DNA of 4,106 nt from a virus (IMGVR_UViG_2740892211_000015:1-4106); one strand, 5' to 3'. Positions 2-637 are shown, counted from the first letter of the stretch. The notes: generated by a model not told the origin, from the letters alone. Translations and numbers: made by a program.

Positions 2-637
2 CCGTCTGCAGATACGTCCGTTCGCACAATCTCCCTGCTGCCGGCAGCCGGAGAGGCTGCTGCGCAGGGCTGGAGCATTAAAGATGGCGGAATTCAGTTG
101 TCAGATGGTGTATTTAAGATCACCAAGCAGAGCAATAAAACCTGGTCCCTGACGCATCCGGTGGATGACGCAATTACCCTGCTGACACAGGGCGGCAGAC
201 TGACCTGTAAGTTCCGCCTCTCAGGCGCACTGACCAACAATCAGTTCGGGCTGGGGATTTATCTGTATACCGATGTAGCGTTACCTGACGTCGTGGCGAT
301 GACCGGGACTGGTAACCCGTTCCTGATGTCGTTCTTCACCCAGACCACAGACGGCAAACTGAATCTGATGCATCACAAGAAAGCCGGAAACACAAAGTTG
401 GGCGAGTTCGGGAATTACAGTAACGACTGGCAGACGCTGGAGCTGGTGTTCACCGCCGGCAGTGCCACGGTTACTCCGAAACTGAATGGAGTGGCTGGCC
501 CGGCATTCCAGGTCATAAAAGACAGTCTGACACTGGGGCTGAATGCGCTGACGCTGACGGATATTACCAAAAATGCAGCGTATGGCGTTGAGATAGAAAG
601 TCTGGTGCTGGAGATAAATGCACCGGCATCATCATAA
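2..637 (+). CDS. 3' portion of a larger late-region protein; its start lies upstream of the window. Possibly the C-terminal domain of a prophage NanS-p-like (sialate O-acetylesterase family) protein; identity uncertain
   Basis: The frame is open from position 2 with no stop before the TAA at 635-637. The TTG at 98 used by the ORF track is probably not the true start. The gene sits immediately upstream of the holin, where lambdoid prophages often carry a large nanS-p/yjhS-like gene; this is inference from position only. Confidence 0.55.
   Translation, partial: PSADTSVRTISLLPAAGEAAAQGWSIKDGGIQLSDGVFKITKQSNKTWSLTHPVDDAITLLTQGGRLTCKFRLSGALTNNQFGLGIYLYTDVALPDVVAMTGTGNPFLMSFFTQTTDGKLNLMHHKKAGNTKLGEFGNYSNDWQTLELVFTAGSATVTPKLNGVAGPAFQVIKDSLTLGLNALTLTDITKNAAYGVEIESLVLEINAPASS

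Follow-up and report, generated by a model that had tools for sequence, protein, structure and literature searches.

An open frame cut by the left edge of a prophage contig (bases 2-637) probably encodes the lectin-like C-terminal domain of a NanS-p-type sialate O-acetylesterase

The viral DNA stretch analysed here, 4,106 nucleotides in its whole length (the window), begins in the middle of an open reading frame, which raises the question of what gene is cut by the left edge and what the retained part of its product could do. According to the reading that we favour, with a probability of about 0.9, bases 2-637 encode the C-terminal domain (CTD) of a 617-aa NanS-p-type prophage sialate O-acetylesterase cut by a contig end; this domain is lectin-like and putatively sialoglycan-binding, and the relatives of the locus are stx-less. 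The gene family, the domain with its solved homologue and the CTD allele class are all already known, so that the window is one more copy of a catalogued CTD class, in an apparently stx-less prophage. Its correct annotation would be a 3′ fragment of nanS-p (SASA-family esterase), and not a 179-aa protein with a TTG start. The features of this part of the window are as follows:

Bases 2-637, plus strand: 3′ end of the nanS-p-type gene, comprising codons 407-617 (of 617) and the TAA stop at 635-637, from the open frame, the extension in contig L004 and the RefSeq annotation
Bases 2-16, plus strand: end of the Pro/Ser/Gly-rich interdomain linker (…KPSPGGNTPSGPSADT…), its last five residues only, from the L004 sequence and a pLDDT below 50 at residues 1-4
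Bases 17-619, plus strand: complete CTD, predicted from the AlphaFold2 strands at residues 6-206, the Foldseek match to 6YP6 and the phmmer match to 6yp6_A
Bases 98-100, plus strand: TTG of the mechanical ORF call, an internal Leu codon at fragment residue 33 (439 of 617)
Bases 182-514, plus strand: match to DUF6645 (PF20350) at fragment residues 61-171, scoring 71.9 bits (gathering score 27; E = 6e-20)

The coding character of the stretch was evident from the frame itself. As the preliminary description had stated, frame 2 of the plus strand is open from the first codon of the window, and it contains no stop from base 2 until the TAA at 635-637 (211 codons and the stop); the other two plus-strand frames contain 9 and 17 stops in the same span, and when the 633 bases were shuffled 20,000 times, a stop-free frame arose only once. 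The codon composition of 2-637 is characterised by a GC3 of 0.63, higher than the GC2 of 0.45. Comparison of this frame with three alleles, two of which are mutually identical across the compared stretch, gave dN/dS values of 0.19-0.28, which at the sequence level indicates purifying selection on the frame. Diversifying selection on the CTD had been considered, given an amino acid identity (94%) lower than the nucleotide identity (97%), and was rejected on account of these values. The product is composed of 12.3% Leu, 11.4% Thr, 10.0% Gly, 9.5% Ala and 5.7% Asn; it is thus rich in Thr and Gly, as had been claimed, but not in Asn, which had been named together with them. The absence of a transmembrane segment from the 2-637 product was likewise in line with expectation, the maximum Kyte-Doolittle mean over 19 residues being 1.27.

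The origin of the left edge could be traced directly. The window (1-4106) is identical throughout to BBUT01000097.1, a 4106-bp contig of the draft E. coli assembly GCA_001592525.1, and since it represents this whole contig, the nanS-p-type gene is cut by the contig end and its catalytic part is absent. The right end of BBUT01000097.1 lies just past cos, and the left end lies inside the multi-copy nanS-p: window 1-1010 was matched in 2460 of 5426 complete E. coli genomes, at a median of 2 and a maximum of 16 places per genome. At the same time, no match to the full window above 97.0% identity was found among the complete E. coli genomes or phage records searched. Sister contigs of other assemblies start on the left at window positions 83, 176, 814 and 918, a scatter of the kind that typically arises when repeated prophage DNA is assembled.

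Extension of the locus upstream was provided by contig L004 (AASDRG010000089.1), which belongs to a different assembly and is 99.97% identical to the window over 1-3889, with a single mismatch at 3534, outside the ORF. This contig reaches 1583 bp further left, and in it the frame goes on for 406 more codons, without an in-frame stop near the window edge, to an ATG preceded by GGGAGG. So, the suggestion that the TTG-initiated ORF called at 98-637 is the tail of a much larger gene was borne out. The full ORF of L004 (367-2220) encodes a 617-aa protein with the same sequence as WP_000874405.1 from strain 12A (E. coli O111:H2), and residues 407-617 of this protein are contained in the window; the label given in RefSeq to 100%-identical DNA copies is “SASA family carbohydrate esterase.”

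The domain architecture of the 617-aa protein is that of the nanS-p-type sialate O-acetylesterase proposed for this position in the preliminary description. Pfam matches were obtained for DUF1737 at residues 3-49 (PF08410, E = 1e-15, in the L004 and L001 copies, outside the window), for SASA at residues 66-262 (E = 1e-12 in the L004 protein) and for DUF6645 at residues 467-577, and the SGNH motifs GQSN (block I, residues 71-74) and RPTH (block IV, residues 356-359) are present in the L004 protein. [quoted passage not shown] The profile search of the C-terminal residues, which had been proposed earlier, returned DUF6645 with the score listed above. No meaningful family was found by the NCBIfam scan of the fragment and of the full protein, the lone 13-bit match being ascribed to chance, and no signal peptide was recognised on reading of the N-terminus of the full protein. 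The N- and C-terminal domains are characteristic of prophage-borne nanS-p genes (PMC10462455). The catalytic and DUF1737 parts are presumably present in the source strain as well, as judged from the near-identical contig of a different assembly.

The distribution of the CTD was followed with a profile, which was needed for access to other CTD classes, as the homologue search with the single fragment brought up, for the most part, proteins truncated at contig ends or made chimeric by frameshifts (P0028, P0037, P0038, P0040). Among 1.84 billion cluster representatives, the CTD profile detected 81 proteins at E ≤ 1e-3 and 20 at E ≤ 1e-30, many of them fragments; in the named-database profile search, nearly all the named hits were from E. 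coli, with one each from E. albertii and Salmonella enterica. The partner of DUF6645 is almost always SASA, with or without DUF1737. DUF1737 and DUF6645 without SASA were observed in P0014 (201 aa), P0020 and P0105; a protein composed of the capsid-binding DUF1737 and a lectin domain alone would resemble a capsid decoration for adhesion to mucus. Additionally, an 831-aa BNR sialidase-like protein (P0145) showed a weak DUF6645 match (E = 1e-6), with a Pfam score of 24.6, lower than the cut-off of 27.

The occurrence of SASA-less variants bears on whether the gene in the source genome is intact or is instead a remnant or deletion variant, i.e., a DUF1737-DUF6645 fusion or a 5′-truncated pseudogene, and it speaks for the latter together with two further points, namely, that the 5′ two-thirds of the gene lie outside the window and that the match is annotated as no more than a “DUF6645 domain-containing protein” in some complete genomes. 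Nevertheless, such a remnant seems improbable: the gene is intact in L004 over the near-identity of 3889 bp described above, the linker and the first strands are kept in the window, although a deletion of the P0014 type removes both, and the frame is under purifying selection. Moreover, the breaks of other assemblies at window positions 83 and 176 are what would be expected of repeat-induced breaks and not of a biological end.

For the favoured reading, the CTD of an intact NanS-p-type esterase, the fold prediction was informative. The AlphaFold2 model of the 211 residues, built from a 30-sequence alignment across several CTD classes, has a pLDDT of 89.7 and a pTM of 0.87 and is all-beta, with 15 strands (of at least three residues) extending from residue 6 to residue 206 and one short helix. 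The top Foldseek match is 6YP6 (TM 0.87, rmsd 1.9 Å, 36% identity), followed by 2W68, a lectin domain of V. cholerae sialidase that binds sialic acid (TM 0.60-0.64). Behind it come L-type lectins (Emp46p, ERGIC-53, legume) and, from the binding domains of clostridial neurotoxins, the lectin-like half (botulinum toxin Hc). The beta-sandwich or lectin-like domain anticipated from the composition was thus recovered, and a jelly-roll beta-sandwich of the lectin-like type is supported for the fragment by the model. The crystallised part of vb_24B_21 (residues 423-645) aligns with fragment residues 3-211, and so the window has the whole CTD and nothing catalytic. In the accounts of Franke et al. (2020) given in PMC10462455 and PMC8065619, the vb_24B_21 CTD is a lectin-like jelly-roll and a proposed carbohydrate-binding module.

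The same model is difficult to reconcile with a free-standing 179-aa protein initiated at the TTG at 98, the start listed by the mechanical ORF call and preceded, at a distance of 8 nt, by a weak purine-rich GGCGGA. The TTG appears in that list only because a start codon is required, the frame is open upstream of it and continues into the 406 further codons of L004, and the start is unused in database annotations among the loci examined. A start there would remove residues 6-32, which are predicted to make up three strands of the CTD (pLDDT > 90) and align to 6YP6. The TTG itself lies inside the predicted strand 31-34, after strands 6-12 and 25-27, and since a start within a beta-strand would truncate the fold, it is not a plausible one; we consider a protein of this kind very unlikely. 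Finally, assignment of the CTD to a tail-fibre, receptor-binding or other unrelated late protein, for which it may be said that phage receptor-binding proteins, too, can have jelly-roll lectin folds and that a possible role in adsorption has been raised (PMC8065619), is hardly credible. By sequence, the domain belongs to DUF6645, a family found fused to SASA esterases; its by far best structural match is a NanS-p CTD, and its gene is located before the lysis cassette and not in the tail module.

The NanS-p CTD that remains as the preferred identification was compared with vb_24B_21 at the residues proposed for its carbohydrate site, Y510, Y515, Y540 and F611 (PMC10462455). The positions corresponding to them in the window, taken from the alignment with 933W L0105, are as follows:

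Bases 245-247, plus strand: Phe82 (F488), counterpart of Tyr510; Phe or Tyr in 29 of 29 sequences with a residue there
Bases 260-262, plus strand: Tyr87 (Y493), counterpart of Tyr515; Tyr in 29 of 29 sequences with a residue there
Bases 335-337, plus strand: Phe112 (F518), counterpart of Tyr540; Phe or Tyr in 30 of 30 sequences
Bases 533-535, plus strand: Leu178 (L584), at the position of Phe611; a variable column (G/L/A/T/S) beside an indel

The first three columns of the proposed site are therefore aromatic in every aligned allele with a residue there, and the fourth is variable; in the window, L584 is part of a loop that is shortened by one residue in this allele class, and the fourth aromatic residue is not kept. 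The CTD in the window is accordingly a putative carbohydrate-binding domain; in the literature, sugar binding by NanS-p CTDs has the standing of a proposal in every case (PMC8065619). The partners of the CTD act on sialic acid, an association, and as such no more specific than that, which fits a sialoglycan-binding role. The CTD would then bind sialoglycans, for example, mucin O-glycans, via a putative aromatic patch of F488, Y493 and F518, and tethering of the esterase to mucin by the CTD would raise the local substrate concentration for the removal of O-acetyl groups from sialic acid.

Alleles of the gene differ in a manner that depends on the domain compared. In the O55:H7 RM12579 allele, codons 1-379 are identical to those of the L004 gene, with 0 differences, but residues 421-617 show 93.9% amino acid identity, and 33 nucleotide changes are found in codons 380-617, with the linker unchanged at the amino acid level. 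The allele of Stx2 phage 86 presents the reverse picture: its N-terminal and catalytic part (codons 1-379) is diverged, with dS of about 1, and its CTD is 94.4% identical. These opposite patterns point to recombination between the catalytic and C-terminal domains, and, as far as the aligned alleles allow it to be judged, the nanS-p-type gene is a domain mosaic. For 933W L0105, the identity amounts to 71% in the catalytic domain and 36% in the CTD. NanS-p CTDs fall into several divergent classes; those described by Pascal et al. (2023) are CTR1-4, and phage 86 was singled out there as divergent, with RPTH in SGNH block IV (PMC10462455).

Since the toxin genes of Stx phages lie just upstream of nanS-p, the preliminary description had raised the possibility that stx is located upstream of the window. 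In 933W, Stx2 phage 86 and an Stx1 phage, stxAB is indeed found approximately 490-510 bp upstream of nanS-p, and the order in 933W and Stx2 phage 86 is stxAB, nanS-p, S. The arrangement in the O111:H2 12A and O55:H7 RM12579 loci is a DNA methyltransferase gene, three tRNA genes, a 490-bp spacer and nanS-p, the tRNA genes detected by ARAGORN having the anticodons CAT, TCG and TCT and being annotated as tRNA-Ile/Arg/Arg. In the O104:H4 prophage, which carries a 97.6%-identical DNA stretch and is stx-less, small DUF3927 and IraM genes are located between the tRNA genes and nanS-p, and in O145:H28 RM12761 the order is Q, a hypothetical gene, DUF3927 and then nanS-p. No stx was found in these four loci (O111:H2 12A, O55:H7 RM12579, the O104:H4 prophage and O145:H28 RM12761), nor in the extending contig L004, and for these closest relatives the lead to stx was not sustained. 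Of the other upstream landmarks proposed for this check, the tRNA genes were recovered in 12A, RM12579 and the O104:H4 prophage, and Q was recovered in RM12761.

The sequence upstream of the gene in L004 made it possible to approach the junction itself. Bases 1-366 of L004 are 100% identical to the stx-less loci L001 and L012, and bases 1-320 are 99.7% identical to phage Nil3, up to the end of that record, in which no stx is present between the tRNA genes and the L004-like sequence. The Stx1 phage, 933W and phage 86 all become homologous to L004 precisely from base 61 onward. This 60/61 point, located outside the window, precedes the nanS-p ATG by about 306 bp, and in 933W and the Stx1 phage, where the distance was measured, it follows the stxB stop by 193-205 bp. 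Judging from these alignments, it looks like a shared right-hand junction of the stx cassette. Because L004 carries stx-less sequence through the point at which the Stx phages lose homology, the window most likely originates from a stx-less lambda-type prophage, a conclusion drawn from the near-identical contig and not from the source strain.

The remainder of the window conforms to the late region of a lambdoid prophage and contains the following features:

Bases 720-757, plus strand: terminator-like hairpin (12-bp stem) followed by a T-run in the 150-bp nanS-p/holin spacer, from a consensus scan
Bases 788-1003, plus strand: class II holin of the phage 21 S type (S21), Pfam Phage_holin_2_1, E = 9e-33, also so annotated in RefSeq
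Bases 1008-1352: YdfR/DUF1327
Bases 1403-1936: phage lysozyme (SAR-type endolysin)
Bases 2272-2739: Rz
Bases 2492-2677: Rz1, embedded in Rz
Bases 3205-3519, plus strand: PerC-family gene, 104 aa, Pfam PerC, E = 4e-44
Bases 3601-3825, minus strand: YlcI/DUF3950 gene
Bases 4033-4044: lambda-type cos, with an exact copy of the 12-nt cohesive-end sequence GGGCGGCGACCT

A large gene directly upstream of the holin, as in Stx phages, had been expected, and this placement holds: the holin is located 150 bp downstream of nanS-p, and 933W and phage 86 have the same order. The position in the late region follows from the holin downstream in the window and from the Q/tRNA side in L001, L012 and L003. The succession nanS-p, holin, YdfR, lysozyme, Rz/Rz1 seen in the window recurs in many prophages of E. 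coli.

Several observations were made beside these genes. The hairpin at 720-757 falls inside the expected single late transcript, and as known from lambda biology, the Q-modified polymerase would be expected to read through such a structure. The holin start (788-799) reads MYQMEK, with two Met codons three codons apart; the S gene of phage 21 has such a dual-start arrangement for holin and antiholin. The gap of 335 bp between lysozyme and Rz (1937-2271) contains a strong terminator-like hairpin with a 15-bp stem (2026-2058) and a 37-aa ORF (2157-2270), which is hydrophobic in its C-terminal half and has a stop codon directly adjoining the Rz ATG; its product is hypothetical in RefSeq and belongs to no Pfam family. 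At the position of this gap, 933W and phage 86 have ant. The stretch 2740-3200, the place of bor in 933W and phage 86, is AT-rich (31-38% GC vs 47.5% for the window), contains no convincing gene and lies just upstream of the PerC-family gene. Some PerC homologues of EHEC/EPEC prophages activate ler, the LEE regulator. Toward the right end, window 3822-4077 shares 89% identity with the joined lambda ends, and this similarity ceases at approximately 4077, after TTTTCCGG. The Rfam search of the whole window at E ≤ 1 yielded only a sub-threshold rimP-leader (2016-2091, minus strand, 24.8 bits vs a gathering score of 47), judged to be a chance match.

As for the mode of action of such a protein, its position and the published data on homologues suggest that nanS-p would be made on prophage induction under Q antitermination, and release would occur by phage lysis, given an N-terminus devoid of a signal peptide. 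Expression of nanS-p and the late genes goes up on induction (PMC10462455). The NanS-p enzymes of EDL933 (seven) and of O104:H4 (five) are reported to be active esterases, which confer on lysogens a growth advantage on Neu5,9Ac2 (PMC8065619); by analogy, the protein of the present allele is a putative Neu5,9Ac2 O-acetylesterase. NanS-p lets pathogenic E. coli lysogens use the O-acetylated sialic acids of mucin. A possible role of NanS-p in phage adsorption has been raised in a review (PMC8065619), and in phi24B, gp84 decorates the capsid via DUF1737 and its CTD is cleaved off after virion release or on storage (bioRxiv 10.64898/2026.04.10.717836). A more speculative idea, which we regard as doubtful though worth stating, is that the CTD of the phage 86 type may recognise a glycan other than that of the 933W/phi24B class, and that NanS-p could be carried on lambda-type capsids via DUF1737, with the CTD acting as a virion-borne adhesin for mucus or sialoglycans and not as a mere helper of a soluble enzyme. 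The part of this idea that concerns a different glycan is based on the 36% identity to the solved domain and on the loss of the fourth aromatic residue beside the loop deletion.

Among the known systems with which the CTD can be compared are 2W68 and the L-type lectins. They share with it a concanavalin-A-like jelly-roll (TM 0.55-0.64, Foldseek E values of 1e-8 to 1e-7) and are linked to, or work together with, proteins active on sialoglycans, but their sequence identity is 8-16% and the rmsd is 4.5-8 Å, so the likeness is one of fold. The 2W68 domain of V. cholerae sialidase is classed as CBM40. The chromosomal NanS/YjhS (3PT5) is homologous, with the E value given above, to the catalytic residues 60-379 of the full protein and aligns with these residues only; the window itself contains nothing homologous to NanS.

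NanS-p of phi24B (vb_24B_21/gp84) and of 933W (L0105) resembles the protein considered here in its three domains, in its position between the Q/tRNA region and S, in the CTD fold (TM 0.87 to 6YP6) and in three of four site residues being aromatic. It differs in sequence (identity of 36% for the CTD, 38% for the linker and 71% for the catalytic domain), in length (645 aa vs 617 aa) and in F611, which is replaced here by Leu beside a deletion. Moreover, phi24B and 933W are podoviruses with stx2, whereas the relatives of the window are stx-less prophages with lambda-type head genes; capsid decoration and self-processing have been described for the podovirus phi24B only.

A close counterpart is NanS-p of phage 86 (Stx2-86_gp03, YP_794050.1; “NanS-p sequence 20” of Pascal et al. 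2023). It differs in DUF1737 (69% identity) and SASA (83% identity), with dS of about 1, and stx2AB is located upstream of it, whereas the closest relatives of the window are without stx. At the same time, both proteins have the same CTD class, with 94% amino acid identity over residues 421-617, and 97% nucleotide identity is observed over window 2-1010. They also share the RPTH variant of block IV, and in both cases nanS-p directly precedes the S21-type holin and the YdfR gene.
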